Shown here piece after piece: positions 2,512 to 21,138 of a stretch of 64,000 nt of DNA. Position 1 is the stretch's first letter. Every line of letters begins with the position of its first letter. The notes under the pieces are model-generated. The model made no database searches. It saw only the letters and a program-made list of their open reading frames with translations, and had not been told where the DNA came from. The stretch is taken from positions 405,682 to 469,681 of the forward strand of contig PLZJ01000002.1 in assembly GCA_003152105.1 (NCBI GenBank), read 5' to 3'. This DNA is from Candidatus Levyibacteriota bacterium (GTDB lineage: Bacteria; Patescibacteriota; Microgenomatia; Levybacterales; UBA12049). A program made the translations under genes and the position numbers.

Positions 2512-2557
2512 ACCCCAGTTAATATAAAAAACGCTATTTGCGGTATAATGCTCTTAT

Positions 2558-3568: not shown

Positions 3569-3653
3569 ATATAGCCTACAGGGTTGTCAAATAGGTAAAA
3601 ATGTGCTTTACTTAAAGAAGTTAAATGCTAAGCGTAGCAGGGGCTGAAAAATT

Positions 3654-4121
3654 ATGGAAAATACAACTAATATAAATAACAAACGAGCAGTAGTTCATAA
3701 TTTTGACAATTCTTCAAAACAGTTATTTAGTCCAAAATATTTAGCAGTACTTATCATCCTCGTATTATTAGGTATTGGCGCAGGTTATTTTTTCACAAGA
3801 CAACAAAATACTTCAGTAAATGCAACCCTTCCTACAGCTACAAATAAAACAGTGGCAATAAAAGCTGGAGATGTATTTGGAGCAAATGATACCAGCGCTT
3901 TTAAAGATACTGCTGAAGGACAATTAGAGGTTGGAGGAGTCGGAGATGAGGGCCAGTATCATTTAGTCAGACCAGGTGGTTCAAGTCAATATGTATATTT
4001 AACCTCCTCTACAGTAGACTTGAGTAAATTAGTTGGAAGAAATGTTAAAGTGTGGGGTGCGACACAGAAGGCACAAAATGTTGGCTGGCTTATGGAAGTC
4101 GGAAAAGTTCAAGTAGAATAA
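3654..4121 (+). CDS. membrane-anchored hypothetical protein
   Basis: N-terminal signal-anchor (YLAVLIILVLLGIGAGYFF), extracytoplasmic C-terminal part; no known domain. Confidence 0.45.
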   Translation: MENTTNINNKRAVVHNFDNSSKQLFSPKYLAVLIILVLLGIGAGYFFTRQQNTSVNATLPTATNKTVAIKAGDVFGANDTSAFKDTAEGQLEVGGVGDEGQYHLVRPGGSSQYVYLTSSTVDLSKLVGRNVKVWGATQKAQNVGWLMEVGKVQVE

Positions 4122-4147
4122 TAGTACTCCACAGTTAATGAATCTCT

Positions 4148-4945: not shown

Positions 4946-4948
4946 TAT

Positions 4949-5815: not shown

Positions 5816-5824
5816 TATAAATAT

Positions 5825-7096
5825 ATGGATCATTTTAGTCAAAAAAGAATATATTTCTTTTACGTACTTTTGTTTTATGTAAGCTTAGTTATTGTATTTC
5901 AAAAGCAAGTATTTGCTCAGCAAACAACACCTACTGATACGCCAACACCTACACCAACTTCTTCCCAATCGAACGATAGTTCTTCTGCTGAAACAGACTT
6001 ATTAAATCAAATTAATGGACTTGAATCCACAATAAATAACTTGCAAGGGCAGGCTAATTCAATTGCGAATACCATTGAGGTTATGAAGGACAAAATATCT
6101 CTTTCAGAGTCTCAAATTGCATTAACCAAGGAAAAAATTGCAAGCATAACTAATGACATAAACGCATCTCAACAGCAAATTACACATTTGAATGGTTCAC
6201 TCAAGGATCTTACGAAACTCTTATTAAATAGAATAGTCTTAACATATGAAGACAGTAATATTCAGCCTATTGAAATACTGGCAACATCAAATTCAGTTTC
6301 TGATTACGTACAGAAACGTAGTTATCTTCAACTAGTGCAAGAACATGATAGAAAACTTATTTATGATACGCAACAAGCCCAAGATAATTATGTGACAATT
6401 AAAAATATTAGAGAAGATCAAAAAAAACAAGTAGTTGTATTGGAAAATCAACTTGTTGATCAAACTAACCAGCTAGATAAAGAAAAAAGCGATCAAGAAA
6501 GTCTTCTTGCTCAAACTAATGGAAATATTGAGGAAGCACAAAGACAACTCGCTCAAGATCAAGCAGAACTTGCTGGCTTTTCTAATTTCGTAACAAGTCA
6601 AGGTGGCGCTTCGCTGCTATCTGGACAAACTGCATGTGACTCTTGGGGTTGTTATTACAATCAAAGAGATAGCCAATGGGGTGGCGTATTAATTAATGGA
6701 CAAGGAGGATATTCAGTTGCTGGGTATGGCTGCTTGATAACGTCCATTGCAATGGTTGCATCACATATGGGGCATAATATTTCACCTGGTGCAATCGCAT
6801 CTTCTGACGGAAGTAATTTTTCATTTGGTACTGCAATGCTTAAATATACTATTTCTGTGAGCGGCTTAAACATTGGTCGTAGTGGTGTATCTCCATTAGA
6901 TAATGCTCTTTCGTCTGGACCGGTAATTGTCGGCATCTATGCATATGGAGGGACTCACTTTGTTGTCATTAAAAGTGGCTCTGGAGGTAATTATGTTATG
7001 GACGATCCCTATATTCCAAATGGTCATGATATAAATTTTACAGATCATTATTCATTGAGTAGTATATTTGAGATGGATCAATTAAGCATCCAATAA
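5825..7096 (+). CDS. secreted coiled-coil protein with C-terminal C39-like cysteine peptidase domain (PcsB/EnvC-like FtsEX-associated peptidoglycan hydrolase candidate)
   Basis: signal anchor, PT linker, long heptad/coiled-coil region (residues about 60-250), C-terminal domain with Cys (YGCLITSIAMV) and His (GGTHFVVI) resembling Peptidase_C39_2/CHAP-type papain fold; placed directly after ftsEX. Confidence 0.55.
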   Translation: MDHFSQKRIYFFYVLLFYVSLVIVFQKQVFAQQTTPTDTPTPTPTSSQSNDSSSAETDLLNQINGLESTINNLQGQANSIANTIEVMKDKISLSESQIALTKEKIASITNDINASQQQITHLNGSLKDLTKLLLNRIVLTYEDSNIQPIEILATSNSVSDYVQKRSYLQLVQEHDRKLIYDTQQAQDNYVTIKNIREDQKKQVVVLENQLVDQTNQLDKEKSDQESLLAQTNGNIEEAQRQLAQDQAELAGFSNFVTSQGGASLLSGQTACDSWGCYYNQRDSQWGGVLINGQGGYSVAGYGCLITSIAMVASHMGHNISPGAIASSDGSNFSFGTAMLKYTISVSGLNIGRSGVSPLDNALSSGPVIVGIYAYGGTHFVVIKSGSGGNYVMDDPYIPNGHDINFTDHYSLSSIFEMDQLSIQ

Positions 7097-7168
7097 TTTC
7101 TTTCCCAAATTTCCCAACTAGAGAATGATACTATGAGATTGTGATATACTGATCCGAATTAAAATCCT

Positions 7169-7597
7169 ATGATAATTAGTAGTGAAAAAGAAATGGAAAA
7201 GCTTGGCTTGTCGTTTGCTACAAAAGTAGTGAACGGAGGCGTTGTTTGTTTATATGGAGAATTAGGAAGTGGTAAAACGACATTTGCAAAAGCACTTGCA
7301 AAAGGACTAGGGTTTACGGGTAGAGTAATTTCGCCTACTTTTCTCATAATGAGAACATATGAGTTGAAAAAGAATAAGCTCGGGAAATTTTATCATTTAG
7401 ATTTTTACAGAACTGAAGACGAGAAAGCTCTTAAAAATCTTGGTATTGAAGAATTATTTGCAAATACTCATAATATTGTTGTTATTGAATGGGCAGAAAA
7501 AGCAAAGAATTTATTACCGAAAAAACGTTTTGATCTACATTTTACGTATTGTAATCAAACGCAAAGAAATATTGAAATTAAAAAGGTTGGAAAATGA
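7169..7597 (+). CDS. tsaE: tRNA threonylcarbamoyladenosine biosynthesis protein TsaE
   Basis: P-loop GELGSGKTTF and overall YjeE-like length (142 aa). Confidence 0.8.
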   Translation: MIISSEKEMEKLGLSFATKVVNGGVVCLYGELGSGKTTFAKALAKGLGFTGRVISPTFLIMRTYELKKNKLGKFYHLDFYRTEDEKALKNLGIEELFANTHNIVVIEWAEKAKNLLPKKRFDLHFTYCNQTQRNIEIKKVGK

Positions 7598-8187
7598 ATA
7601 CAGATAAAAGTACATTATATATCAATAAAGCAGCAAAAATTATTAAAGAAGGAGGTATAGTAATTTATCCAACTGATACAGCGTTTGGAATTGGGTGCAG
7701 AATGGATGATGAAGCTTCTGTGGCTCGATTATTTTCAATTCGAAAGAGACCCAAGACGCAAGCAGTCCCTTTATTATGCAGCTCGATGAATATGGTTAAT
7801 AAATATATAAAAACTATTCCTGTAGGTGTTGACGAAAAGCTTATAAAGAAATATTGGCCTGGACCTTTAACTATTGTTTTTGAAGCTAAAGTAGAGAGGA
7901 TACCTGAGCTTGTAAGAGGAGGAAAGCGAACAATTGGAATGAGAGTGCCAAATCATAAAGATGTAATTTCGTTAATTCGGAAAGTTGGTATACCGATACT
8001 TGGACCTTCTGCAAATTTTCATGGAGAAGCAACGCCTTATACGTTTTCAGAAATTGATCCGAAGTTAATTTACTTGGTAGATTATGTTATGCCTGGTTTA
8101 TGTGAGCTTAAGAAAGCATCTACTGTAGTTGATGTTTCGCTTTCGCCTTGGATGACGCTACGAGAAGGAGCAATTAAATTAAGATGA
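7594..8187 (+). CDS. tsaC: L-threonylcarbamoyladenylate synthase (YrdC/Sua5 domain)
   Basis: YrdC-like motifs (IYPTDTAFGIGC, RPKTQAVPLL); overlaps tsaE stop by 4 nt. Confidence 0.8.
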   Translation: MNTDKSTLYINKAAKIIKEGGIVIYPTDTAFGIGCRMDDEASVARLFSIRKRPKTQAVPLLCSSMNMVNKYIKTIPVGVDEKLIKKYWPGPLTIVFEAKVERIPELVRGGKRTIGMRVPNHKDVISLIRKVGIPILGPSANFHGEATPYTFSEIDPKLIYLVDYVMPGLCELKKASTVVDVSLSPWMTLREGAIKLR

Positions 8188-8501
8188 TAACACTCTATAT
8201 CGATTCTAAAGATAATACCAAAATAATTATTTCATTAAAAAAAAATAAAATCATTGATACGATTGAAACTGCTTTAGTTTTAAAAAAAGGATCACAAGTT
8301 ATTTTGCCATCAATTGAAAAAATACTTAAAAAACATTCACTTACCATTTCAGATATCGAAGCTGTTGAAGTTAACTGTGGTCCTGGTTCTTTTACCGGAC
8401 TACGTGTTGGGGTGGCTATTGCAAATGCACTTGCGTTTTCACTGGGCGTTTCGCTGAATAAAAAGAAAGTTGGAGTATATCAGGAACCCAAATATCAATG
8501 A
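8184..8501 (+). CDS. tsaB: TsaB-like protein, N-terminal half only (minimal YeaZ)
   Basis: TsaB/YeaZ signature GPGSFTGLRVGVAIANALAF; only 105 aa versus about 230 aa for full-length TsaB; overlaps tsaC by 4 nt. Confidence 0.6.
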   Translation: MITLYIDSKDNTKIIISLKKNKIIDTIETALVLKKGSQVILPSIEKILKKHSLTISDIEAVEVNCGPGSFTGLRVGVAIANALAFSLGVSLNKKKVGVYQEPKYQ

Positions 8502-8513
8502 TATACTTAATGT

Positions 8514-9407
8514 ATGAAAGCATGGCTGTCCCATTTATTTTTACCTCAAGATTCAAATAATCATCGAGCAAAAATACTTCATCATCAAAGTTTGGCCTAC
8601 CTAATAATAATTTTTATTGCCATTCAAATAGTTTTTTTTCGAATAAATACTAGCTCTCCTCAGGTACTCGGAACCACAACCGATATCTCAGCACAGGAAT
8701 TATTGCATTATTCAAATATAGAGAGAATTAAATATAATCTGTCTCCATTAACGTTAAATAACTCGCTTTCAGTAGCTTCGGAAAATAAAGCAAAGAATAT
8801 GTTTCAGTTTAATTATTGGGCACATTTTTCTCCTACTGGTACTACCCCTTGGTCATTTATAAAGGCAGCTGGCTATGATTACGTATATGCTGGAGAAAAT
8901 TTGGCAAGAGGTTTTACCGACTCTCAATCTATTGTTGATGCATGGATGAATAGTCCTACTCATCGAGCAAATCAATTATCATCAAATTATACCGACGTAG
9001 GGTATGCTGTTGAAGACGGCACTTTGCTTGGCGAGCCAACAACTCTTGTAGTTGAGATGTTTGGATCCACCACGCAGTCTTTAGCTAAATTGAATTCAGA
9101 AAAGAATGCTTTAGGCGCAACTACAATTGTTCTTTCTCCTACACCTGAGGGGACTGGACTAATACCAACACTTGTAGGTAGCGTTGGTACAAAAATGGTA
9201 AAATACTCATTCATTAATAGTATCCTTGCATCAAAAACAATCGCTTTTGCTCTGCTTAGCATGTTAATCATCCTTCTTTTACTTGATGCCGTATTTATAG
9301 AAAAAAAGAAAATCTATAGACATATTGGAAATCACATTGATCATTTGTTATTTTTTTCTACCCTGTTATTTTTTGTTTTATTAATTGGAGAGGGGGTAAT
9401 TTTGTAA
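8514..9407 (+). CDS. CAP (SCP/PR-1-like) domain protein with C-terminal membrane anchor
   Basis: CAP-domain motifs (YWAHFSPTG, GENLARGF, DAWMNSPTHRANQL); N-terminal signal anchor and C-terminal TM. Confidence 0.65.
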   Translation: MKAWLSHLFLPQDSNNHRAKILHHQSLAYLIIIFIAIQIVFFRINTSSPQVLGTTTDISAQELLHYSNIERIKYNLSPLTLNNSLSVASENKAKNMFQFNYWAHFSPTGTTPWSFIKAAGYDYVYAGENLARGFTDSQSIVDAWMNSPTHRANQLSSNYTDVGYAVEDGTLLGEPTTLVVEMFGSTTQSLAKLNSEKNALGATTIVLSPTPEGTGLIPTLVGSVGTKMVKYSFINSILASKTIAFALLSMLIILLLLDAVFIEKKKIYRHIGNHIDHLLFFSTLLFFVLLIGEGVIL

Positions 9408-9408
9408 T

Positions 9409-9669
9409 ATGTTTACAAAGAAGCATATTTTATACTACATCATATTAAGTGTAATTTTGCTTTTTGGTTTGTTTTTACTGCTTCAAAAAAATCTTAGTTC
9501 TTCGATGCATATATTTATAGCTTTGTTATTATGTTTATTTTATGTAATTTGGGGAATTGTTCATCATAGATTTAATCACAGCGTATCAGCTAGAATTGTG
9601 CTAGAATATGTTTTAATAGGAATTGTTGGGTTTTTAATTCTTAATTTCTTATTACAAATTGTATTATGA
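9409..9669 (+). CDS. small integral membrane protein
   Basis: 86 aa, three predicted TM helices; first gene of a co-directional operon. Confidence 0.4.
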   Translation: MFTKKHILYYIILSVILLFGLFLLLQKNLSSSMHIFIALLLCLFYVIWGIVHHRFNHSVSARIVLEYVLIGIVGFLILNFLLQIVL

Positions 9670-10406
9670 AAGGTATTGTATTAGCAGGTGGGCTTGCAAC
9701 TAGACTAAGGCCTTTAACGCGAGTCACAAATAAGCATCTTCTTCCAGTATATAAAAAGCCAATGATATATTACCCCATTGAAGCAATGGTTCGAGCAGGT
9801 ATTAAAGAGGTGCTCATTACCAGTTCCGCAGATCACGCTGGTCACTTTGCGAATCTCTTAGGATCGGGTGAAGAATTTGGGTTAACTTTATATTACGCAA
9901 TCCAAGAAAATCCTAAAGGAGGGATTTCTGATGCTATATTGCTTGGTGAAGAATTTGCAAGGAAAGAAAAATTACTTGTTCTATTAGGAGATGGCATTTT
10001 CAATTACGATTTATCAAATGCAGTGAATAGACTAGAACAAAAAGAAAAAGGAGCTACTGTATTTGGCATACAAATGCCAACAGAATCTGGACAATATGGA
10101 GTAATTGAAATGGATGAATCCGGAAAAGTTCTTTCAATTGTTGAAAAGCCAGAACATCCAAAATCTAATATTGCTCAAACAGGAATTTATATGTACGATG
10201 AGCGAGCTTTTGAATTCATTCATTCTCTTAAGCCATCAGAGCGCGGAGAGCTTGAAGTTACTGACCTAAATAATCTTTATGTAAAAGAGGGTACGTTATC
10301 TTGTGAATTACTAGATTGGTGGATAGACGCAGGTACTTCATATGATGAGCTTCTGCGAGCAAATAACTTAGTTGCAGAAAAAGTTAAGGCTGGTGAATTT
10401 GAATAA
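9666..10406 (+). CDS. sugar-1-phosphate nucleotidyltransferase (glucose-1-phosphate thymidylyltransferase-like, short form)
   Basis: N-terminal GIVLAGGLATRLRPLT nucleotidyltransferase motif; 246 aa; followed by rmlB/rmlD homologues. Confidence 0.7.
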   Translation: MKGIVLAGGLATRLRPLTRVTNKHLLPVYKKPMIYYPIEAMVRAGIKEVLITSSADHAGHFANLLGSGEEFGLTLYYAIQENPKGGISDAILLGEEFARKEKLLVLLGDGIFNYDLSNAVNRLEQKEKGATVFGIQMPTESGQYGVIEMDESGKVLSIVEKPEHPKSNIAQTGIYMYDERAFEFIHSLKPSERGELEVTDLNNLYVKEGTLSCELLDWWIDAGTSYDELLRANNLVAEKVKAGEFE

Positions 10407-10443
10407 ACTAATCACAGCATCGTTATTTTGCAAATAAAAATTT

Positions 10444-11457
10444 ATGAAATTACTCGTTACTGGTGGAGCAGGATTTATTGGTACAAACTTTATATTATAT
10501 TGGCTAAAAAATCATGAAGGTGACGAAATTGTAAATCTGGATAAGCTTACCTATGCGGGTAATTTAGAGAATCTAACTTCAATAGAAAAAAATCCGCGTT
10601 ACTCATTTATTCATGGGGATATTTGTGACTCAACAATAGTAAATAAAGTAATGGAAGGCATTGATAAGGTTGTCCATTTTGCCGCAGAAACACACGTTGA
10701 CCGTTCAATTAGTGGGCCTGCTGTATTTATTACGACAAATGTTGTAGGTACTCAAATACTTCTGGATGCAGCGCTCGAACATAAAATAAAACATTTTCAT
10801 CATATTTCTACAGATGAAGTATTTGGTCAATTAGAAATTGAATCACATGATAAGTTTAGTGAAAATACGCCATATAATCCTAGGAGTCCATATTCGGCCA
10901 GTAAGGCAGCATCTGACCATTTAGTCAGAGCATATTTTCATACATATGGATTACCCATAACTATTACGAATTGCTCTAATAATTTTGGTCCATATACATT
11001 CCCTGAAAAATTTTTCCCTTTAGCTATTACTAACATACTAGAAGGTAAGAAGGTGCCTGTTTATGGTGATGGGAAAAATGTAAGAGATTGGCTGTATGTT
11101 GAAGATCATGCCAGGGCAATAGACCTTGTGCTTAATAAAGGTAAAATTGGAGAAACCTATGTAGTCGGTGGATTACAAAATGGAATTTCAAACATAGATG
11201 CACTGCGTAAAATTCTTACAATTATGGGTAAAAATGAAGATAGTATAGAGTTTGTGAAAGATAGACCTGGACATGATAGGAAGTATGATATTGATTGGAG
11301 TAAGATTCATAATGAACTTGGCTGGGAACCTATATTTACATTTGATGAAGCACTCAAAAAAACAATTAGTTGGTATACGGAAAACGAAACATGGTGGGAA
11401 AATATTAAATCAGGAGAATATGCCTCTTATTATCAAAAACAATATCCGCATTCATGA
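10444..11457 (+). CDS. rfbB: dTDP-glucose 4,6-dehydratase
   Basis: MKLLVTGGAGFIGTNF Rossmann start, catalytic YSASKAASD, extended SDR; 337 aa. Confidence 0.85.
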   Translation: MKLLVTGGAGFIGTNFILYWLKNHEGDEIVNLDKLTYAGNLENLTSIEKNPRYSFIHGDICDSTIVNKVMEGIDKVVHFAAETHVDRSISGPAVFITTNVVGTQILLDAALEHKIKHFHHISTDEVFGQLEIESHDKFSENTPYNPRSPYSASKAASDHLVRAYFHTYGLPITITNCSNNFGPYTFPEKFFPLAITNILEGKKVPVYGDGKNVRDWLYVEDHARAIDLVLNKGKIGETYVVGGLQNGISNIDALRKILTIMGKNEDSIEFVKDRPGHDRKYDIDWSKIHNELGWEPIFTFDEALKKTISWYTENETWWENIKSGEYASYYQKQYPHS

Positions 11458-11490
11458 ATTACTTGTTGCATTAATTAGTTACAATTACAT

Positions 11491-12360
11491 ATGACTATTT
11501 TAGGAACTGGACTTAATGGGCTTGTTGGCTCACGAATAGCTGAGTTATTAAAAAACACTTACCACTTTGAATCACTTAGTAGATCTTCAGGTGTTGATAT
11601 TTCTGATGCTCGATTGGTCGAGGAAGCAGTGAATAAATCAGCATCCGAAGTTGTTCTTCATTTTGCAGCAAAAACTAATGTTGATGCTTGTGAAGAAGAT
11701 AAGAAATATGGGAAAGATGGAGAAGCATGGAAAGTAAATGTTTTAGGAACAAAAAATATTGTAAATGCATGTGAGAAAAGTGGTAAAAAACTAATATATA
11801 TTTCTACAGATTTTATCTTTAATGGCGAAAAAGATTTTTATACTGAAATCGATGGTCCTGACCCAATTAATTGGTATGGTATGACAAAATGTGAGGGAGA
11901 ATCTGAAGTGCAATCAAGTAGTTCTGATTGGATAATAATGCGTATAGCTTATCCTTATAGAAGTAAATTTGAAAAAGGTGATTTTGTAAGAAAAATACAA
12001 GAAAGATTTACAAATAAACAAGAAGTAGCTGGTGTTACTGATCATATTTTTTGTCCTACTTTTGTTGATGATATTGCCGCTGCGATTTCAAATTTAATAA
12101 AGCAAAAAGCAACAGGTATATATCATGCAGTTGGATCAGAATCACTTTCGCCATATATTGCTGCAACCAAAATTGCAGAAACTTTTGGATTTAACCAAAA
12201 ACTTATAAGTAAAACCACACGAGCAGAATATTTTAAAGATAAAGCCCCACGTCCCTTCCATTTAGTTTTAAAAAATGATAAGATTGAGCAATTAAATGTA
12301 GCAATGAATTCATTTTCAAAAGGGTTAGAACTAGTTAAATCCCAACAAGCTACAATATAA
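11491..12360 (+). CDS. dTDP-4-dehydrorhamnose reductase family protein (RmlD-like 4-ketoreductase)
   Basis: RmlD motifs STDFIFNG and YGMTKCEGE; 289 aa. Confidence 0.7.
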   Translation: MTILGTGLNGLVGSRIAELLKNTYHFESLSRSSGVDISDARLVEEAVNKSASEVVLHFAAKTNVDACEEDKKYGKDGEAWKVNVLGTKNIVNACEKSGKKLIYISTDFIFNGEKDFYTEIDGPDPINWYGMTKCEGESEVQSSSSDWIIMRIAYPYRSKFEKGDFVRKIQERFTNKQEVAGVTDHIFCPTFVDDIAAAISNLIKQKATGIYHAVGSESLSPYIAATKIAETFGFNQKLISKTTRAEYFKDKAPRPFHLVLKNDKIEQLNVAMNSFSKGLELVKSQQATI

Positions 12361-12364
12361 AAAT

Positions 12365-13672
12365 ATGACAATTACATTTATTGGACATGGATATGTGGGG
12401 CTCGTTACGGCAACAGTTTTTGCTGAGCTTGGAAATACAGTGTATGTCATTGGACATACAGCAGATAAGATAGAAAACTTAAAAAAAGGAATTTTACCAA
12501 TTTATGAGCCAGGGCTGGAAGAAATGGTTAAGAGAAATACAAAGGCTGGTAGATTATTATTCACACTAGATTACAAACCAGCAATCCCAAATTCAGATGT
12601 TGTATTTATTGCCGTTGGGACACCACCAAAACCTAACGGTGAGGCAGATTTGTCTGTAGTTTTTGAAGTGGCTAAAAAAATTGGAGAACATCTAGATGGT
12701 TATACTGTTGTAATAACAAAAAGTACGGTTCCTGTTGGTACTTCGGAACATGTAACAAAAATTCTAGCTGACGTTAAAAACAAAAAAGCCAAATTTGATT
12801 ATGCTTCAGTTCCTGAATTTTTACGAGAAGGACAGGCGATATCAGATACGCTAAGCCCTGATAGAGTTGTTATCGGAGTTGAAACAAAGCAAGCTGAGGA
12901 ATTGCTAACAACGCTACATAAACCAATTCTTGCTAACGAAAATGTAAAATCAAAACTAGTAATTACCAATATTCCAACTGCTGAAATGATAAAGTATGCT
13001 TCAAATGCATTTTTGGCGACAAAAATTTCGTTCGCAAATGCTATAGCGCAACTTTCTGAAAAAGTTGGTTCAGATGGTCCAACCGTATTGTCGTCTATCG
13101 GTTTAGATAAAAGAATCGGATCCGCATTTCTAAATGCGGGTGCTGGATATGGAGGAAGTTGTTTTCCAAAAGATGTAAAGGCACTTATTTCAATTGCAAA
13201 ATCTTATAATTACGACTTCACTTTATTAAAAGATGTCGAAAAAATTAATGAAGATGCGATAATTGGCATAGCAAACAAAGCAACAAAAATGCTCGGAAGC
13301 GTAAAAGGAAAATCAGTTGCAGTACTTGGGCTTTCATTTAAGCCAGATACAGATGATATGAGAGATGCTCCATCTATTACAGTCATTAAAGATCTTGTAA
13401 AAAATGGAGCCACTGTAAAAGCATATGATCCAATTGCAAAAGATACTGCCCAGAAAGCTATTCAATCAATTACATTTGCAGATTCAGCATATGAAGCAGT
13501 ATCAGATGCAGACATATTGATCCTTATGACTGAGTGGAATGAATTTAAGGAATTAGATATGGAAAAAGTAAAAACATTAATGAAAAATCCTCAAATTCTT
13601 GATGGGAGGAATATGTATAATAAAGATGAAATGGAAAAAATGGGATTTGTATATGTTGGCGTTGGACGATGA
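12365..13672 (+). CDS. ugd: UDP-glucose 6-dehydrogenase
   Basis: N-terminal GHGYVGL NAD fold, catalytic region GYGGSCFPKD, 435 aa. Confidence 0.85.
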   Translation: MTITFIGHGYVGLVTATVFAELGNTVYVIGHTADKIENLKKGILPIYEPGLEEMVKRNTKAGRLLFTLDYKPAIPNSDVVFIAVGTPPKPNGEADLSVVFEVAKKIGEHLDGYTVVITKSTVPVGTSEHVTKILADVKNKKAKFDYASVPEFLREGQAISDTLSPDRVVIGVETKQAEELLTTLHKPILANENVKSKLVITNIPTAEMIKYASNAFLATKISFANAIAQLSEKVGSDGPTVLSSIGLDKRIGSAFLNAGAGYGGSCFPKDVKALISIAKSYNYDFTLLKDVEKINEDAIIGIANKATKMLGSVKGKSVAVLGLSFKPDTDDMRDAPSITVIKDLVKNGATVKAYDPIAKDTAQKAIQSITFADSAYEAVSDADILILMTEWNEFKELDMEKVKTLMKNPQILDGRNMYNKDEMEKMGFVYVGVGR

Positions 13673-14625
13673 AAAAAATTCTCATTACAGGTGCTACAGG
13701 TTTTGCTGGAACTCATTTAACGAATCTTCTTCACCAAAATCCAGAGAATAAATTATTTGGCACTTCATTTACTTCAGTTACTAATACAGATACCAGCATT
13801 ACTCTTGAAAAAGTAGATTTACTTGATCAAGATGTTACAGAAGCAATGCTTGGAAAAATTAAACCTGACGAAGTGTACCATTTAGCTGCGCTTTCTGCCC
13901 CAAGTTTAAGTTTTGAAAATCCTATAAATACGGTTACAAATAATATTAATGCGGAAATTATTTTACTTGAAGGGCTTAGAAAACTTAATTTATTATCTAC
14001 CAAGGTACTCATAATTTCTTCTGCAGAAATATATGGGAAAGTTTCTCCTAAAAATATACCGATGAATGAAGATACACCTTTTTTCCCCGTAAGTCCTTAT
14101 GCAGTTTCAAAAATAGCTCAGGATTTTCTAGCCTTACAATACCAACTTGCATACAACATGCATATAGTGAGAGTTAGACCATTTAATCATATAGGCCCTG
14201 GACAAAGTCCCTCATTCGCAGTCGCAGCTTTTGCCAAACAAATAGCTGAGATAGAAAAAGGAGAAAAAAAGCCTGTTTTGCATGTTGGCAAATTAAATGC
14301 TAAGCGTGATTTTACAGATGTTAGAGATATGGTAAAAGCATATGTTTTAGCTTTGAAAATGGGAACTGCGGGAGAAGTGTATAACATTGGCTCTGATAAA
14401 TCGATAACGATAGAACATTTATTAGAAATGATTATTAATAATTCCAAAGTAAAAGTTTCAGTCGAGACTGATCAAAGCAAATTTAAGCCGATTGATACTC
14501 CTGAACTGCTTTGTAATAGCCAGAAATTTCGAAACTTAACTGGTTGGAAACCAGAAATTACACTCGAACAAACGATTCAAGATATTTTATCTTACTGGAG
14601 GCATCAAGTATCTATAGAAAGTTAA
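13669..14625 (+). CDS. NAD-dependent epimerase/dehydratase family protein (GDP-4-keto-6-deoxy-D-mannose reductase/epimerase candidate)
   Basis: MKKILITGATGFAGTHL Rossmann motif, YAVSK catalytic Tyr-x3-Lys; directly upstream of gmd. Confidence 0.6.
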   Translation: MKKILITGATGFAGTHLTNLLHQNPENKLFGTSFTSVTNTDTSITLEKVDLLDQDVTEAMLGKIKPDEVYHLAALSAPSLSFENPINTVTNNINAEIILLEGLRKLNLLSTKVLIISSAEIYGKVSPKNIPMNEDTPFFPVSPYAVSKIAQDFLALQYQLAYNMHIVRVRPFNHIGPGQSPSFAVAAFAKQIAEIEKGEKKPVLHVGKLNAKRDFTDVRDMVKAYVLALKMGTAGEVYNIGSDKSITIEHLLEMIINNSKVKVSVETDQSKFKPIDTPELLCNSQKFRNLTGWKPEITLEQTIQDILSYWRHQVSIES

Positions 14626-14651
14626 TACTGGTAACGATATCGAATGTATAG

Positions 14652-15665
14652 TTGAGTATTATTCAAAAGTCAGTTAAAATAAATAAAGAAATGGCAAAAA
14701 AAGCATTAATAACAGGAATAACAGGACAGGATGGGCCGTATCTCGCTGAATTTCTATTATCAAAAGGGTATGAGGTTTTTGGTTTTGTCCGTCGTTTAAG
14801 TACTCCAAACATTACAAATATCCACCATTTAAAAAACAAGATTCAATTAGTATCTGGCGATTTATTAGATCAAGGGTCAATAATGGGGGCATTATTAGAG
14901 ACAAAACCAGATGAAGTATATAATTTAGCCGCACAATCGTTTGTTGAGAGCTCTTGGAAACAGCCGGTGTTAACAGGTGAATTTACCGCGTTATCTGTCA
15001 CAAGAATGCTAGAGGCAGTTCGATTAGTAGACAGGAATATCAGATTTTATCAAGCATCATCTTCTGAAATGTTTGGTAAAGTAACGGAAACGCCACAAAA
15101 AGAGACAACCAGATTTTATCCACGTTCTCCTTATGGGGTAGCTAAAGTATATGGTCACTATATTACGGTAAATTATCGAGAAAGTTATAACATGTTTGCC
15201 GTATCAGGTATATTATTTAATCACGAATCTCCTAGGAGAGGTATTGAATTTGTAACACGGAAAATAAGTAATTCAGTGGCAAGAATATCATTAGGACTTT
15301 CGGATTCATTAGAACTTGGCAATTTGGATTCTAAACGAGACTGGGGATTTGCAGGCGATTACGTTGAGGCTATGTGGTTAATGTTACAACAGGATCACGC
15401 TGATGATTATGTTATTGCAACCGGAGAAAATCATAGTGTTCGAGAATTTGTTGAGTTAGCTTTTAAAATAGTTGGGATAACTGATTGGGAAAAATATGTT
15501 AGAGCAAATCATCCAAAGCACTTAAGACCAGCTGAAGTTGATAATTTAATAGGAGATTATTCAAAAGCTAGAGAAAAATTAGGATGGCAACCGAAAACAA
15601 GTTTCCCTGAACTTGTTGAAATGATGGTAAAAGCTGACATAGAAAAAGAAAAGAAAACAATGTAA
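14652..15665 (+). CDS. gmd: GDP-mannose 4,6-dehydratase
   Basis: [19 protein letters not shown] and [12 protein letters not shown] motifs characteristic of Gmd; true start probably Met at about 14691. Confidence 0.85.
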
Positions 15666-15666
15666 T

Positions 15667-16632
15667 ATGCAAAAAGTCCTCGTAACAGGTGGAGCAGGGT
15701 TTATTGGATCACACCTATGCGCATTTTTGCTTTCTCAAAATTATCAAGTTATCTGTCTGGATAATTTCTTAAGTGGAAGAAAAGTAAATATTAAAGCACA
15801 TGAATCAAATAGTAATTTTTCACTTATTGAGTATGATATAACTAAGCCAATTGATGCAATTGCGTCTAAATTGGAAGCTATTGATTTTATTTTTCATCTT
15901 GCCTCACCAGCTTCGCCAAATAAATATAGTAAAACTAGCTATCTTTCAAACCCAATTGAAACCTTATCAGTGAATTCTTTTGGCACTCATCAATTGTTAG
16001 ATCTTGCATTAAAAAATAAGTCGCGATTTCTTTATGCCTCATCATCTGAAGTATATGGAGATCCATCAATTTCACCTCAAGTTGAGAGTTATTTCGGGAA
16101 TGTAAATCCGAATGGGCCGCGATCAGTGTATGATGAAGGAAAGAGATTCGGTGAAGCGATAACAATGGCTTTTGTGAGAAAGTATGACGTAGACGCAAGA
16201 ATTGTGAGAATATTTAATACATACGGACCAAATATGAGAGAAGATGATGGTAGAGTTGTGTCAAATTTTATTATCCAAGCTTTACAGAATAAGCCATTAA
16301 CAATATATGGTAAAGGTGATCAGACAAGGAGCTTTTCTTATGTATCGGATACTGTTTCTGGATTGATTAAAACTATGTTCACAGATGGTCAGAAGGGAGG
16401 AGTTTTTAATATCGGAAATCCAATTGAAAAAACAATCCTTGAGTTTGCCACTCTTATTAAGGAACTTACTGGTTCAAAAGTCGATTTTGTATATGAGGAT
16501 TTGCCTCAAGATGATCCAAAGCAACGTAAACCAGATATTTCAAATGCTAAGGATAGATTGGGATATGTTCCATCTGTTACACTTGAGGAGGGATTAAAAA
16601 AAACAATAGAATATTTTAATAAGTCTGTTTAA
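15667..16632 (+). CDS. UDP-glucuronate decarboxylase (UDP-xylose synthase)
   Basis: VLVTGGAGFIGSHLC...CLDNFLSGRK N-terminus and YDEGKRFGE catalytic motif typical of UXS; sits 2 kb downstream of ugd. Confidence 0.75.
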   Translation: MQKVLVTGGAGFIGSHLCAFLLSQNYQVICLDNFLSGRKVNIKAHESNSNFSLIEYDITKPIDAIASKLEAIDFIFHLASPASPNKYSKTSYLSNPIETLSVNSFGTHQLLDLALKNKSRFLYASSSEVYGDPSISPQVESYFGNVNPNGPRSVYDEGKRFGEAITMAFVRKYDVDARIVRIFNTYGPNMREDDGRVVSNFIIQALQNKPLTIYGKGDQTRSFSYVSDTVSGLIKTMFTDGQKGGVFNIGNPIEKTILEFATLIKELTGSKVDFVYEDLPQDDPKQRKPDISNAKDRLGYVPSVTLEEGLKKTIEYFNKSV

Positions 16633-16634
16633 GT

Positions 16635-17882
16635 ATGAAAATAGTAGTAATGATACCAACATATAACGAGAAGGAAAACATAGAGAAGATGTTACCTCTT
16701 TTGGAGAATGAGGTATTCCCAAAAATTCAAAATCATAATATGCATATTTTAGTTGCTGACGATACTTCACCAGACGGGACCAAAGAGGAAGTAGAAAAAT
16801 CAATTAAAAAATGGAGCAATATCCATTTGTTAGAAGGAAAAAAGGAAGGCTTGGGATCAGCATATATCCGTGCTATGCATTACGCTATGAACACATTAAA
16901 TGCTGAAGCTGTAATTGAATTTGACGCAGATTTTCAGCACGATCCGCATGATATTCCAAGATTAGTTGCAGCAATGGATCAAGGGTATGATTATGTTATT
17001 GGAAGTCGGTATATTAAAGGTGGGCAAATTCCTAAGGAATGGGGATTAAACAGAAAAATAAAAAGCTTTTTTGGTAGTCTATTGGCAAGAATAGTTCTTT
17101 TTACATTTTCTATTCATGACATGACTTCTGGTTTCAAATTAACCAAGACTTCATTCTTAAAACAAGTTGATCTAGATCATCTCATTTCAAGAAATTATGC
17201 ATATAAGCTACAAATATTATTTGAAATTGTACTACTTGGTGCAAAGGTAAAGGAAATACCAATCATATTTTATGAGAGAAGTGCAGGGAAAAGTAAAATG
17301 GAGACAAATGACATTTACGATTCTTTAAAAGTAATTTTTACATTACGACTGCGAGAATCAATGCGTATTATCAAATTTTTATTTGTAGGAGGGACAGGGT
17401 TCGTAGTTCAAATTATTGTTCAAGAAAGTACTATTAGAACTGGTTTGGCAATATTTCTAGCAATGCTGGTTTCATCAATTCACTTCCCCTTTTTAAATGT
17501 TCAAAATCTTGGAGCTGTATCAAATGGTATAGGAGCTGGATTTGGAGCAGAAGCAGCAATAGTTTCTAACTTTTTATTCAATAATTTCTGGACCTTTAAT
17601 GATACAAGACATTTAAAACAAACATCACCGTTTGTCATTAGAGCAATAAAATTTAATTTAGCCTCTCTATTATCAATTGCAATACAAACATTTGCAGTAT
17701 ATCTTGGTGTAAGGCTTTTTGGGGAAAATATTAGTCTCTTTTCGCATAGCTTACCTACAAGAATTCTAATATTATTCCCTACAATTATATTTCTTGTGAT
17801 TCCCTTGAATTATATTATTTACAATATGTTAATTTGGAAAACACGCTATTTAAAGCATGATAAAAAAACTTCAACTCACTAA
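16635..17882 (+). CDS. GT2 polyprenol-phosphate glycosyltransferase (DPM1/GtrB-like) fused to C-terminal GtrA-like membrane domain
   Basis: N-terminal IVVMIPTYNEKENI and VADDTSPDGT GT2 motifs; C-terminal about 130 aa with 4 TM helices (FLFVGGTGFVVQ...) matches GtrA family. Confidence 0.75.
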   Translation: MKIVVMIPTYNEKENIEKMLPLLENEVFPKIQNHNMHILVADDTSPDGTKEEVEKSIKKWSNIHLLEGKKEGLGSAYIRAMHYAMNTLNAEAVIEFDADFQHDPHDIPRLVAAMDQGYDYVIGSRYIKGGQIPKEWGLNRKIKSFFGSLLARIVLFTFSIHDMTSGFKLTKTSFLKQVDLDHLISRNYAYKLQILFEIVLLGAKVKEIPIIFYERSAGKSKMETNDIYDSLKVIFTLRLRESMRIIKFLFVGGTGFVVQIIVQESTIRTGLAIFLAMLVSSIHFPFLNVQNLGAVSNGIGAGFGAEAAIVSNFLFNNFWTFNDTRHLKQTSPFVIRAIKFNLASLLSIAIQTFAVYLGVRLFGENISLFSHSLPTRILILFPTIIFLVIPLNYIIYNMLIWKTRYLKHDKKTSTH

Positions 17883-19407
17883 AGAGTCTGTAATTATTAG
17901 TGCAATCTTACTTCTTGCGGCATTTCTCCGTTTGTATAATATTAATGGATTCTTAGTATTTCTTGGAGATGAGGGCAGAGATGTTTTAACAGCATATAAC
18001 ATACTGCATGGACACTTAACATTGCTTGGTCCAACTTCTTCTGTAGGAGGTTTTTTCTTAGGGCCATTTTACTACTACTTAATTGCTCCATTTTTACTTC
18101 TTTTTAATTATGATCCAGTTGGACCAGCAGTAATGATTGCTTTTTTTGGGATTCTCACCGTTTATTTTGTATATAAAATAACTAATGAATTTTTTGGTAA
18201 ACCAGCTGGACTTTTTGCTAGCGCATTGTATGCTGTATCTCCACTAGTTATTCAATATTCTCAATCTTCTTGGAATCCTAACTTAATGCCGATAGCAACA
18301 TTAATTCTTTTGTACTTGCTTTATAAATCAGTAAACAATAGAAAACAAAAATACTTCTTTATAGTTGGATTATTGTATGGAATCTGCATGCAACTTCATT
18401 ACCTTGAAGTGTTTGTTGGAGTTGTCATCCTGCTTTACACCGCATTTGGAATATATAAATTAAATCCAAGTAAGTCGAAAAACATACGTATGATTTTACA
18501 AAGCTATGTAAGTATTTTTGTAGGCTTTATAATTTCATTTTCACCCTTTTTGCTTTTTGAAGTTAGACATAACTTCTTAAATACGAGAAATATTATTATG
18601 TTTATATTTGCTTCCAAAGATGCCGGACCTGGAGGTAATTATGTAACAATTGTGTTTACTGTTTTATTTCGTTTATTTGCGCGTCTTATGGTTGATTTCC
18701 CTCTCGCTCAAGATCTAAAGCTATATAGTATAACCATTCTTATAATTTGGGGTGCGGTAGGAGTATTGATAGGCATTTTTTCAATATTTGCATTATTTAA
18801 AATTAAGAATAAGCAAATGTTTTATTTGTTATTATTTTGGTTATTTATTAGTATTTTACTCTTTGGATTTTATAAGAAGCAAATTTACGATTATTATTTC
18901 GAGTTTCTTTATCCATTACCCTTTATGTTATTTGGCGGTGGACTTGCTCTATTGTATAAAAATGCAAAACAAAATCCAGTTAAGAAATCTATCATACTTA
19001 TAATATTTTTCTTGCTTTTTCTTTTTAGCTTATATCGTGCAGATCCAATATTTAAACAAGCAAATCACCAAAAAGATCAAGCAAAAACTATTGCTGATTT
19101 TGTACTTTCAAAAACTGATAATAAGCCGTTTAATTTTGCATTAATTACTGGAGGAAATTCCGATTATGCATACAGATACTATTTCACTATTGAAAACCAC
19201 CCTCCGGTAACAATATTAAATCCCTCGCAGGATCCTATGCGAAAATCTGTTACCAGTCAGTTGCTTGTGGTTTGTGAAAGTTTGCCTTGTTCTCCACTTG
19301 GATATTCATTATGGGAGGTAGCTGGGTTTGGAAGAGCAAATATTGTTGGATCATGGAATGTTTCAGTAGTTAAGGTATATAAATTGGATCATTACACAGG
19401 TTATTAG
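17857..19407 (+). CDS. GT-C fold glycosyltransferase (GT39/GT83, PMT/ArnT-like)
   Basis: 12+ TM helices, first periplasmic loop with FLGDEGRD (DE motif of PMT/ArnT family); overlaps upstream GT2 gene by 26 nt. Confidence 0.7.
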   Translation: MIKKLQLTKESVIISAILLLAAFLRLYNINGFLVFLGDEGRDVLTAYNILHGHLTLLGPTSSVGGFFLGPFYYYLIAPFLLLFNYDPVGPAVMIAFFGILTVYFVYKITNEFFGKPAGLFASALYAVSPLVIQYSQSSWNPNLMPIATLILLYLLYKSVNNRKQKYFFIVGLLYGICMQLHYLEVFVGVVILLYTAFGIYKLNPSKSKNIRMILQSYVSIFVGFIISFSPFLLFEVRHNFLNTRNIIMFIFASKDAGPGGNYVTIVFTVLFRLFARLMVDFPLAQDLKLYSITILIIWGAVGVLIGIFSIFALFKIKNKQMFYLLLFWLFISILLFGFYKKQIYDYYFEFLYPLPFMLFGGGLALLYKNAKQNPVKKSIILIIFFLLFLFSLYRADPIFKQANHQKDQAKTIADFVLSKTDNKPFNFALITGGNSDYAYRYYFTIENHPPVTILNPSQDPMRKSVTSQLLVVCESLPCSPLGYSLWEVAGFGRANIVGSWNVSVVKVYKLDHYTGY

Positions 19408-19473
19408 CTTCCTTTAGCTGCTTACGCTTCTCAGAACAACCAATTTTTGCTACAATAGCATACTTATTGGCAT

Positions 19474-21138
19474 ATGACAGATTTAGTAAAACTAACAAAA
19501 CAACAAAAGCTGCTAATCATGATTGGCGCAATGTCTGCGTTATTTTTAGCCGCTCTTGATCAAACTATCGTTGCTACAGCAACTCCTAAGATCGTTGCAG
19601 AATTTAATGGATTTGATAAGTTAACGTGGATTTTTACCGCCTATATGCTTGCTGCAACTATTACTGTGCCAATATATGGAAAATTATCAGATATTTATGG
19701 GAGACGAATATTTTATTTATTGGCAATCGTAATTTTTCTGATAGGATCAATATTTTCAGGTGTATCTCAAAATATGATTGAATTGATACTTGCTAGAGCA
19801 GTTCAAGGAATAGGTGCTGGTTCTATTATGGCAAATTCATTTGCAATCATAGGTGACTTGTTTGTTCCCGCAGAGAGATCAAGGTGGCAAGGGTTATTCG
19901 CTGGCGCATGGGGACTTGCCTCGGTTGTTGGGCCAACATTAGGAGGTTACTTTACTGATCATATTTCTTGGAGGTGGAATTTCTTTATAAATATTCCTAT
20001 CGGTATACTATCTTTTGCATTTATTTATTTCTTAATGCCCAAAATTATTACTCATGCTAGAGAAAAAAGTATTGACTACATAGGAGCTATTTTTTTAACG
20101 CTCACGTTAATTTCACTATTACTCGGTTTTGTTTGGGGAGGTAGCCAATATGCTTGGCAGTCTTGGCAAGAAATAGGACTGTTTGTTTTATCATTTTTCT
20201 CTTTATGTGCTTTTATTGCTAATGAAAAGAAAGCAGAAGATCCAATAATTCCTTTAACTTTATTTCAAAATCCTATTTTTACTACCTCAATGATACTTGT
20301 TTTTATCTCAGGAGTAGCAATGTTTGGCATAATTTTATACATACCTCTATTTGCACAAATTGTGCTAGGTATTTCTGCAACCAATTCTGGTGCAATTTTA
20401 ACACCTTTAACACTCGGACTAGTAATTGCAAGTGTGGTTTCTGGACAAATCAGTTCGCATAGAGGAACTTATAAATCTCTTATTATTTTCGGAATTGAGA
20501 TGATGACACTTGGCGTATTTCTTCTCTCTCGAATGGATATTCATACAAGTCCATATTCTTTAGCTTTGTTTATGATTATTTCAGGAATAGGAATGGGAAT
20601 TACTTTACCGTTATTTACAGTAATTGTGCAGAATGCATTTGATCATTCAAAATTAGGTGTAGTTACGGCTTCAACGCAACTTTTTCGAAGTATTGGAGGG
20701 ACTGTCGGTACTGCAGTTATGGGGAGTATAGTTAATAATGCACTACATCAAAAACTTTCCAATTTATCAGGAGATATTTTTATTTCAACATATGGGAAAT
20801 ATATTTCATCTATAAATATTGAACATTTGTCTATAAATCAAATACAGTTATTAGTTGCAAATTCAAAACAAGCTACATCTCAACTCGCAAAACTACCAAA
20901 TCCGATTAATAAATTCGCATTGCTTTCTTTTAGTTCATTTATTGAGAAAGTTAGAATTGCTCTTTCTTCATCGATAGCAGAAATATACGCAATAGCTACA
21001 CTTTTACTTTTACTTGCAATAGGGCTTTCATATTTGTTAAAAGAAATTCCGCTTAAAGAACATAATCAACCAATTAAAGATGGTGAAATTGAAAATTTAG
21101 ATAAAGCCACCGGAAGTGAATTAGCTTCTTATCATTAA
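19474..21138 (+). CDS. MFS transporter, DHA2 (14-TM drug:H+ antiporter) family
   Basis: MFS motifs (GKLSDIYGRR, QGIGAG), about 14 TM helices, 554 aa. Confidence 0.75.
   Translation: MTDLVKLTKQQKLLIMIGAMSALFLAALDQTIVATATPKIVAEFNGFDKLTWIFTAYMLAATITVPIYGKLSDIYGRRIFYLLAIVIFLIGSIFSGVSQNMIELILARAVQGIGAGSIMANSFAIIGDLFVPAERSRWQGLFAGAWGLASVVGPTLGGYFTDHISWRWNFFINIPIGILSFAFIYFLMPKIITHAREKSIDYIGAIFLTLTLISLLLGFVWGGSQYAWQSWQEIGLFVLSFFSLCAFIANEKKAEDPIIPLTLFQNPIFTTSMILVFISGVAMFGIILYIPLFAQIVLGISATNSGAILTPLTLGLVIASVVSGQISSHRGTYKSLIIFGIEMMTLGVFLLSRMDIHTSPYSLALFMIISGIGMGITLPLFTVIVQNAFDHSKLGVVTASTQLFRSIGGTVGTAVMGSIVNNALHQKLSNLSGDIFISTYGKYISSINIEHLSINQIQLLVANSKQATSQLAKLPNPINKFALLSFSSFIEKVRIALSSSIAEIYAIATLLLLLAIGLSYLLKEIPLKEHNQPIKDGEIENLDKATGSELASYH

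Follow-up and report, generated by a model that had tools for sequence, protein, structure and literature searches.

A conserved Levybacteria locus encoding nucleotide-sugar enzymes, a putative polyprenyl-phosphate sugar synthase and a GT-C glycosyltransferase

Which sugar is placed on the cell surface by a locus that encodes enzymes of three nucleotide-sugar routes together with a single pair of membrane glycosyltransferases? This question is raised by ten genes at positions 9409-19407 of a 64,000-nucleotide stretch of DNA (hereafter the window; contig PLZJ01000002.1 of assembly GCA_003152105.1, positions 405,682 to 469,681) from a Candidatus Levyibacteriota bacterium. We propose that the locus is a Levybacteria nucleotide-sugar supply cluster combined with a two-gene extracytoplasmic glycosylation module, with mannose as the most likely donor sugar, and we put the chance that this is correct at about even. 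The locus is genuine and is kept across the lineage, yet as an envelope-glycosylation locus it is of a conventional kind. The window lies on a 1.139-Mb metagenomic scaffold and has a G+C content of 33-35%. The nearest relatives of its GT-C and GT2 glycosyltransferases (47-66% identity) come from Candidatus Levybacteria/Levyibacteriota bins, which belong to the Patescibacteria, or Candidate Phyla Radiation (CPR).

Glycosylation in CPR/Patescibacteria was called unexplored in a 2024 preprint on Saccharibacteria pili and is essentially unstudied; a literature search found no paper on this locus or on Levybacteria glycosylation. The cell surface is where the tiny CPR episymbionts meet their hosts, and the locus, present in nearly every sampled Levybacteria species, is a testable candidate for core envelope-glycan machinery. 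No known principle is overturned by it, and every enzyme comes from a well-understood family. Genes were assigned by Pfam, NCBIfam and PDB searches, with matches far beyond chance. The proposed module consists of the last two of the ten genes:

16635..17882, + strand: polyprenyl-phosphate glycosyltransferase of the dolichyl-phosphate mannose synthase (DPMS) type, 415 aa, with a GT2 domain (PF00535, 4e-24) and a GtrA-like domain (PF04138, 4e-9)
17857..19407, + strand: GT-C glycosyltransferase of the PMT_2 family (PF13231, 2e-14)

The first of these proteins (GT2+GtrA) opens with its GT2 catalytic domain, which spans residues 1 to ~230; interface helices come next, and a GtrA-like membrane domain of four helices forms the C-terminal part (~245-401), where the PF04138 profile (GtrA_DPMS_TM) matches residues 247-401. 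Its best sequence match in the PDB is the DPMS of Pyrococcus furiosus (PfDPMS; 5mlz, 8.7e-39, 137 bits), whose alignment covers the catalytic domain (residues 1-259); phmmer reports a further domain match at transmembrane helices (TMH) 2-3 of the membrane domain. Matches to ArnC (1e-12, ~50 bits) and GtrB (8e-6, 28 bits) score far lower. An AlphaFold model (predicted local distance difference test (pLDDT) 84.7) shows four long helices in the membrane domain, and a Foldseek search with this model placed 5mlz, 9ep0 and 5mm1 on top (2e-22, 29% identity over 410 columns), then ArnC and GtrB. An earlier reading of this DNA, made from the sequence alone, had called the protein a GtrB-GtrA fusion. 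The union of a GT2 and a GtrA-like domain in one chain holds, whereas the GtrB assignment gives way to the nearer DPMS (137 vs 28 bits).

The likeness to PfDPMS extends to the active site. Contacts reported for PfDPMS (PMC5526996) are Y10, D39, G68 and L69 for guanosine; D91 and Q93, plus R202 and K208 via E12, for the metal and diphosphate; D89, H94, R117 and K178 for mannose; and R117, R131 and S135 for the phosphate of dolichyl phosphate (Dol-P). In the PfDPMS alignment, the window protein has Y10, D43, G72 and L73 at the guanosine positions; D99, Q101, R215, K221 and E12 at the metal and diphosphate positions; D97, H102, R125 and K191 at the mannose positions; and R125, R140 and S144 at the Dol-P phosphate positions. 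All these equivalents are invariant in 35 close homologues, and the only changed contact is the gate residue F177, which is Y190 here. The DxD catalytic residues, whose loss the sequence-only reading had named as a refuting observation, are present as D97-A-D99 within E95-F-D97-A-D99-F-Q101-H102. ArnC has Asn and Gln at the equivalents of PfDPMS H94 and L69, and it is also without the GSRY Arg that the window GT2 keeps. Within the pocket of the GtrA-like domain, PfDPMS N277 corresponds to the invariant N312. TMH4 lies outside the phmmer alignment, and its conserved N392, Y393, Y396 and N397 are candidates only for PfDPMS R/N341 and F338, as the register is not fixed.

Judged by sequence and model, GT2+GtrA is best described as a bacterial homologue of the archaeal type-III DPMS. 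Like the P. furiosus enzyme (5MLZ/5MM1/9EP0; Gandini et al. 2017, 2026), it joins GT2 domain, interface helices and four-helix GtrA-like domain in one chain and, the gate residue apart, keeps the DADxQH motif and the donor, metal and acceptor contacts listed above. It differs in its Levybacteria host, which is bacterial (CPR) and presumably mesophilic, in its identity of ~29%, in a membrane domain that is 40-60 residues longer and has a Gln (Q259) in place of N248, and in the translational coupling of its gene to a GT-C gene. The carrier, too, would here be bacterial polyprenyl phosphate and not dolichyl phosphate. A survey in a 2026 study of type-III DPMS found the strict type only in hyperthermophilic archaea (PMC12992685); given its bacterial host, the Levybacteria protein is therefore a relative and not a member under the strict definition. 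The same study described flipped Dol-P-mannose bound in the GtrA-like domain and proposed self-translocation of the product. This bacterial lineage is rich in DPMS-like synthases fused to a GtrA-like domain (>4000 homologues from Patescibacteria/Levybacteria metagenome bins), a finding relevant to the idea that the lipid-sugar is flipped by the fused domain.

The second protein is modelled with ~12-13 transmembrane (TM) helices, followed by a ~110-aa C-terminal extracytoplasmic alpha/beta domain (AlphaFold, pLDDT 89.5). It carries the DE motif that the sequence-only reading had noted, as FLGD38E39GRD42 in the first outer loop after TM1. Across 37 aligned homologues the motif varies little or not at all, with D38 invariant and E39 conserved in at least 90%. 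Other invariant polar residues are SWNPN 138-142, QLHY 179-182, E235, H238, R276 and K341, and Cys473 and Cys478 are invariant in the C-terminal domain. Comparison with all PDB chains, by sequence and by family profile, gave no match, and PF13231 was the only family to pass, with no match to PF02366, PF16192 or MIR. Structural matches in the PDB were found by Foldseek to AglB/STT3/PglB (~1e-7), Pmt4 (5e-5) and also ALG12, all at ≤16% identity, while ArnT (5f15), of family GT83, gave the best two-way TM-score (0.61/0.58, at 12-14% identity). By fold and motif it is a true GT-C enzyme, of the ArnT/PMT/STT3 class but outside any characterised family. Through its acidic FLGDEGRD loop, the enzyme would pass the sugar to an envelope acceptor outside the membrane, and it may decorate glycans that are assembled elsewhere from the supply sugars.

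The GT2+GtrA and GT-C genes overlap by 26 nt, and as a translationally coupled pair their products probably act together. To see how constant this arrangement is, we used a comparative set of 80 loci from one scan of GTDB species genomes, essentially all of them from Levybacteria, with further loci from exact-protein look-ups. Open reading frames (ORFs) were called in these loci and compared with the window proteins by BLAST. The cluster order recurs in ~80 other Levybacteria species, and the near-universal order is TsaB-CAP-sTM-RmlA-[cupin]-[NUDIX]-RmlB-RmlD-Ugd-Rmd-Gmd-UXS-GT2GtrA-GT-C-DUF4446-DUF3048-SecDF, where sTM is a small membrane protein and UXS a UDP-xylose synthase. Among 79 related loci, the two glycosyltransferase genes adjoin in 76: they overlap in 56, are at most 30 nt apart in 16 and at most 100 nt apart in another 4. 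Their constant closeness supports a functional pair. The pair is also kept where single neighbours are missing from the cluster, namely UXS (L043, L047, L054, L066, L067 and L083), Rmd (L044 and L055), RmlD (L018) or Gmd (L066); in the loci without UXS, Gmd directly adjoins GT2. The pair is therefore not strictly dependent on any one neighbouring branch, and UXS is dispensable as a neighbour.

What, then, would the pair carry? We suggest that GT2+GtrA, working on the cytoplasmic side of the membrane, links a hexose to polyprenyl phosphate. The hexose is most likely mannose from GDP-mannose, a pool of which must exist because Gmd consumes it. The lipid-sugar would then be flipped, possibly by the fused GtrA-like domain, and handed to the GT-C enzyme. 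Of this picture, the gene content, domain layout, homology, conserved motifs and synteny are observations; the donor sugar, the flipping step and the acceptor are inferred. The sequence-only reading had favoured a polyprenyl-P-xylose donor, with GT2+GtrA loading xylose from UDP-xylose in an Arn-like way without the aminotransferase and the GT-C enzyme transferring xylose outside. In its favour, the gene directly upstream of GT2, in the window as in most relatives, is that of UXS; the cluster has both Ugd and UXS; and ArnC, a UDP-pentose user, is the second-best structural relative of GT2. We nevertheless regard a xylose donor as very improbable. GT2 is far nearer to the GDP-mannose-using DPMS than to ArnC (137 vs 51 bits) and keeps the DPMS-specific H102, L73 and GSRY Arg that ArnC is missing; UXS does not adjoin Ugd, and the six species without a cluster UXS retain the pair. 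Documented lipid-linked pentose systems, moreover, combine synthases dependent on phosphoribosyl pyrophosphate with MATE flippases, a different set of enzymes (PMC11127046).

The decarboxylase itself also fits poorly with an Arn-like route. The window UXS matches human UXS1 over its full length at 331 bits, compared with 75-88 bits for ArnA, its translation contains the T/S-E, YxxxK and Arg motifs of such a decarboxylase, with SSSEVYGDP and YDEGK readily seen, and it has no formyltransferase domain. By these features it is a genuine, complete UDP-xylose synthase and not an ArnA-type oxidative decarboxylase. Pfam lists contained no ArnB and no DegT or other aminotransferase gene, whether within the cluster or in the rest of the 64-kb window. 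With the Arn system (Ugd-ArnA-ArnB-ArnC-ArnE/F-ArnT), the window shares Ugd, a UDP-glucuronate decarboxylase, a GT2 synthase, a GtrA-superfamily element and an ArnT-like GT-C fold. It differs in that the decarboxylase is UXS, that ArnB, formyltransferase and deformylase are lacking, and that GT2 is nearer to DPMS than to ArnC. To our knowledge, Levybacteria also have no lipid A to serve as acceptor. The Gtr/Arn logic of the sequence-only reading hence survives in its Gtr half, the succession of lipid-P-sugar synthesis, flipping and GT-C transfer, whereas the Arn analogy lapses with the lack of an ArnA-type enzyme and ArnB.

GDP-D-rhamnose (6-deoxy-D-mannose), the expected product of Gmd and Rmd, offers another donor. 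GT2+GtrA would then make polyprenyl-P-D-rhamnose, and the GT-C enzyme would be an extracytoplasmic D-rhamnosyltransferase. Such a GDP-linked, manno-configured sugar fits the DPMS pocket, as the O2, O3 and O4 contacts D97, H102 and K191 are conserved; Gmd and Rmd are encoded 1-2 genes upstream, and Gmd lies directly beside GT2 in the UXS-less loci. On the other hand, the pair is still there where Rmd (L044, L055) or Gmd (L066) is missing, and R125, the equivalent of the mannose O6 contact Arg117, is retained, although this residue also binds the acceptor phosphate and is not decisive. We know of no polyprenyl-P-D-rhamnose donor. Taken together, we consider D-rhamnose a quite unlikely donor and keep mannose as the leading candidate.

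Several observations weigh against our proposal of a mannosylating pair. The D39-type Asp and the DADxQ motif also occur in the UDP-using ArnC and GtrB, PfDPMS itself is partly active with GDP-Glc (PMC5526996), and the nucleotide and sugar specificity of GT2 enzymes is not reliably readable from sequence. The immediate upstream neighbour of GT2 in the window is UXS. The GT-C enzyme has no close characterised relative (≤16% identity to solved structures), and its acceptor is therefore a guess. The housekeeping flanks, TsaB-CAP upstream and DUF4446-DUF3048-SecDF downstream, are as syntenic as the sugar genes, so that gene order is weak evidence for the sugar genes and the pair forming one pathway; for the same reason, we rejected the conserved order as strong proof of a functional unit. 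Finally, most relatives carry a GT2 that is only ~39% identical to the window GT2, and a uniform specificity across the lineage is not guaranteed.

This last point reflects two flavours of the GT2 active site at the syntenic position among L007-L086. Only ~6 of 80 species have the window type (EFDADFQHDP / YAYK / FYER..G.SK), and the majority type reads DAD[LGF][QSF]HDP, GY[TI]FQ and F[ST]DR.LG.SK (e.g. L026:8781, L061:8847 and L040:8711). The best match of the majority flavour is also PfDPMS (4.6e-33). Similarity among the GT-C proteins of these relatives does not follow the GT2 flavour, which would fit, but does not prove, a single lipid-sugar product of both flavours. Each flavour occurs with long and with short GtrA-like domains, a mixing that suggests replacement or recombination in situ.

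Turning to the acceptor, we slightly prefer a glycopolymer of the wall or membrane, made from the neighbouring sugars, over the Ser/Thr residues of surface proteins. In Gtr-type and Gram-positive multi-component systems (GtrA/GtrB/GtrC; CsbB/GtcA/YfhO; GacI/J/K/L), a GT2 enzyme makes the lipid-P-sugar, a GtrA-family element flips it and a GT-C enzyme transfers the sugar outside (PMC8035078). The window likewise encodes a GT2, a GtrA-family element and a GT-C together, and flipping may proceed in the same way. Unlike in those systems, a single protein holds both the synthase and the GtrA-like element, the synthase resembles DPMS and not GtrB (28 bits to GtrB), and the GT-C enzyme is unrelated in sequence to the characterised GtrC, YfhO and GacL, as far as this is testable.

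The actinobacterial Ppm1/Pmt system provides the model for a protein acceptor. There, polyprenyl-P-mannose comes from a DPMS-family synthase and is used by a GT-C enzyme of the PMT superfamily that has a DE motif. The window pair resembles it in coupling a DPMS-family synthase with a DE-motif GT-C. It differs in that Ppm1 has no GtrA-like domain, that Pmt belongs to PF02366/GT39 proper and has no C-terminal outer domain, and that ppm1 and pmt do not normally overlap or lie among nucleotide-sugar genes. The pair could be a bacterial protein O-mannosylation system of this kind, with the sugar genes as merely syntenic neighbours that share no acceptor with it. The combination of a DPMS-type synthase with a DE-motif PMT_2 GT-C is the canonical pairing, NCBI names the homologues 'glycosyltransferase family 39', the top Foldseek matches of the GT-C protein are protein-glycosylating oligosaccharyltransferases, and the synteny reaches into housekeeping genes as well. 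Ser/Thr/Pro-rich secreted proteins are also encoded nearby, e.g. at 5825-7096. Conversely, the GT-C protein shows neither a MIR domain nor a significant match to PF02366, the PMT family proper, and its TM bundle with the ~110-aa outer domain and its best TM-scores resemble ArnT rather than Pmt. The sugar-nucleotide cluster setting is more typical of systems that modify glycopolymer side chains (PMC8035078). We therefore consider O-mannosylation apart from the sugar genes possible but doubtful, and retain the supply cluster with its mannosylating pair.

Two genes just upstream of the cluster encode the kind of protein that could be open to O-glycosylation, judging from their predicted features:

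5825-7096, + strand: PcsB-like secreted protein with a Thr/Pro/Ser-rich linker, TTPTDTPTPTPTSSQSNDSSS
8514-9407, + strand: membrane-anchored CAP-domain protein

The remaining eight of the ten genes comprise a small membrane protein and seven supply enzymes, which would make three kinds of activated sugar:

9409..9669, + strand: small membrane protein (sTM), 86 aa, ~3 helices, between the CAP-domain gene and rmlA
9666..10406, + strand: RmlA, short-form glucose-1-phosphate thymidylyltransferase, 246 aa (PF00483, 4.5e-57)
10444..11457, + strand: RmlB, dTDP-glucose 4,6-dehydratase (TIGR01181, 482.8 bits vs a cutoff of 365.1)
11491..12360, + strand: RmlD-family 4-ketoreductase, dTDP-4-dehydrorhamnose reductase-like (PF04321, 2e-60)
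12365..13672, + strand: Ugd, UDP-glucose 6-dehydrogenase (three UDPG_MGDP_dh Pfam domains; TIGR03026, 455 bits; TuaD model, 533 bits)
13669..14625, + strand: Rmd-like GDP-4-keto-6-deoxy-D-mannose reductase, a short-chain dehydrogenase/reductase (SDR) (PDB 2pk3, 1.5e-66)
14691..15665, + strand: Gmd, GDP-mannose 4,6-dehydratase, 324 aa (TIGR01472, 429.3 bits vs a cutoff of 415)
15667..16632, + strand: UXS, UDP-glucuronate decarboxylase (UDP-xylose synthase), 321 aa (human UXS1, 7e-98)

The dTDP, UDP and GDP branches recognised in the sequence-only reading are thus all encoded. That all three feed the GT2/GT-C pair was an overstatement, as one GT2 and one GT-C cannot use three different sugars. 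Pfam lists of the neighbours showed no glycosyltransferase besides the pair, no polymerase and no exporter in the 64-kb window, and most of the nucleotide sugars must therefore serve enzymes encoded elsewhere, presumably for the most part Leloir glycosyltransferases. RmlA, RmlB and the RmlD-like protein would supply a dTDP-6-deoxyhexose by what is ancestrally the L-rhamnose route, Ugd and UXS would supply UDP-glucuronate and UDP-xylose, and Gmd and Rmd GDP-D-rhamnose. When set against the classical RmlABCD, Gmd/Rmd (Aneurinibacillus thermoaerophilus, Pseudomonas aeruginosa) and Ugd/UXS pathways, the window enzymes are clear orthologues, and the best PDB matches of RmlA and Rmd are both S-layer-glycan enzymes of A. 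thermoaerophilus. Unlike the classical pathways, the window packs three branches into one run without polymer-assembly genes, and RmlC is not in its cluster, though it is in those of some relatives.

The lack of RmlC raises the question of what the dTDP branch makes. No RmlC-type cupin was found in the 64-kb window, either in the Pfam lists of neighbours or by tblastn with three Levybacteria cupins; the rmlA-rmlB gap is only 37 nt and holds neither rmlC nor a nudix gene. From the absence of RmlC in the ten-gene run, the sequence-only reading had concluded that the product is a D-configured 6-deoxyhexose of the quinovose or fucose type, made by RmlB and the RmlD-like enzyme, and not L-rhamnose. 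The wider lineage offers some support. The rmlA-rmlB interval is covered in 57 Levybacteria species loci; 46 of these lack a cupin at that place, yet their RmlA, RmlB and RmlD are intact. The window RmlD-like protein scores under the RmlD equivalog cutoff (TIGR01214, 186.6 bits vs 224), and none of the best 120 homologues of the Levybacteria RmlC from L087 lies on a contig with the length of the window's scaffold (1,149,594 nt), a weak negative since a divergent copy would rank lower.

In other relatives, however, cupins stand at exactly this junction. A short cupin (142-147 aa, PF14667, distantly RmlC-like) lies between rmlA and rmlB in 9 of the 57 loci and an RmlC-like gene in 2; two further relatives, L087 and L089, have a canonical RmlC (PF00908) followed by a NUDIX gene. 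In all, L087, L089, L062 and L084 carry an RmlC or RmlC-like gene at the junction. The closest relatives of the window RmlD (58-59% identity) are the RmlDs of the RmlC-containing clusters L087 and L089, and the GT2 of L089 is the one most like the window GT2 (66% identity). The window RmlD also has normal catalytic STD and YxxxK motifs and matches the PDB RmlD 3sc6 (1e-30). The absence of RmlC covers the 64-kb window, with about 1.08 Mb of genome outside it, and bacterial rmlC genes often lie apart from the rest of the rml set. For at least some Levybacteria, the dTDP branch is an ordinary L-rhamnose pathway. Given the canonical RmlC in L087 and L089, a D-configured product does not follow from the missing RmlC, and we consider it unlikely.

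Undescribed chemistry at this locus would take one of two forms: a polyprenyl-P-D-rhamnose donor (or, less likely, a polyprenyl-P-xylose donor), or a dTDP-6-deoxy-D-hexose made by RmlB and RmlD in the ~80% of species without an RmlC-type cupin. We judge it decidedly unlikely that either is the case. If true, either would mean new sugar chemistry on the CPR surface by way of a bacterial self-flipping type-III-like synthase.

RmlA matches 4ho0 (4e-65) and 3hl3 (3e-61) in the PDB, and its TIGR01207 score (250 bits) falls under the cutoff of 360 because the C-terminal ~50 aa are absent, a short form comparable to Bacillus anthracis 3hl3. A role as a promiscuous enzyme that feeds all three branches was considered and rejected, since the PDB comparison shows a normal short-form RmlA. 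At the rmlA-rmlB junction, 49 of ~80 species have a NudE-like NUDIX hydrolase (~180 aa; e.g. L002:2197-2739) that is not in the window cluster and may be a nucleotide-sugar pyrophosphatase. The RmlB proteins of L043 (2611-4707) and L055 (2623-4797) hold a ~360-aa LAGLIDADG-type intein. It is inserted at the catalytic HHIS|TDEV motif, starts with Cys, ends in ...CGN and has Thr as the +1 residue; the two halves of the split RmlB correspond to residues 1-123 and 122-334 of the window protein.

Within the GDP branch, the best PDB matches of the Rmd-like SDR are two solved Rmd enzymes, the GDP-6-deoxy-D-lyxo-4-hexulose reductase 2pk3 (1.5e-66) and the GDP-6-deoxy-D-mannose reductase 6x3b (1e-50). 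GDP-D-rhamnose is accordingly its predicted product, with GDP-6-deoxy-D-talose as a possible alternative. For Gmd, the longest ORF starts from a TTG at 14652, and the gene caller takes the ATG at 14691. The + strand Gmd of other relatives is 74-78% identical to that of the window. In ten loci (L008, L012, L025, L035, L039, L042, L046, L049, L087 and L089), a divergent Gmd (~49% identity) on the opposite strand replaces it at the same position.

The ORF listing shows exactly ten co-directional + strand ORFs at 9409-19407, in the order sTM, RmlA, RmlB, RmlD-like, Ugd, Rmd, Gmd, UXS, GT2+GtrA and GT-C. The tight ten-gene run of the sequence-only reading is thereby borne out. That reading had described nine of the genes and left the tenth, sTM, undescribed; its order of Ugd, UXS, SDR and Gmd needs correction, as UXS comes after Gmd. 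Spacers across the ten genes range from -26 to +37 nt, with 4-nt overlaps at sTM/RmlA and Ugd/Rmd in addition to the GT2/GT-C overlap. The + strand run goes well past the limits drawn for the operon, from about 2056 to 21138 with nearly all genes on this strand and tiny spacers, which leaves the operon boundaries undefined. A promoter and terminator consensus scan gave fewer promoter-like sites than shuffled sequence and as many terminators as the shuffles, and hence no operon boundaries.

The sTM protein has no Pfam or NCBIfam match, and a precomputed DUF5656 match is weak. Its homologues (35-47% identity) occupy the same position in most related loci. As a DPM2/DPM3-like or GacJ-like partner of the synthase it was rejected, with no Pfam match in support and its gene abutting the upstream CAP gene.

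Directly after the GT-C gene, the window departs from its relatives:

19474-21138, + strand: MFS transporter, 554 aa (TRI12/MFS_1, DHA2-like)

This gene is present in 0 of 80 related loci, where DUF5679, DUF4446 and DUF3048 come next, and it looks like a lineage-specific insertion. L004 carries a second sugar cluster after GT-C (L004:11752-20841) that encodes a Ugd-like protein, an epimerase, a GT2, a DegT aminotransferase, WbqC, PIG-L, GH8 and GH18. The site downstream of GT-C may be a variable glycan island. Further along, the window encodes other proteins with carbohydrate-related domains:

40832-45760, + strand: 1642-aa protein with GDSL-lipase, GH5 cellulase and GH18 chitinase-type domains
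54822-56507, 59639-60586 and 61789-62808 (the last on the - strand): predicted glycoside hydrolase or polysaccharide deacetylase genes

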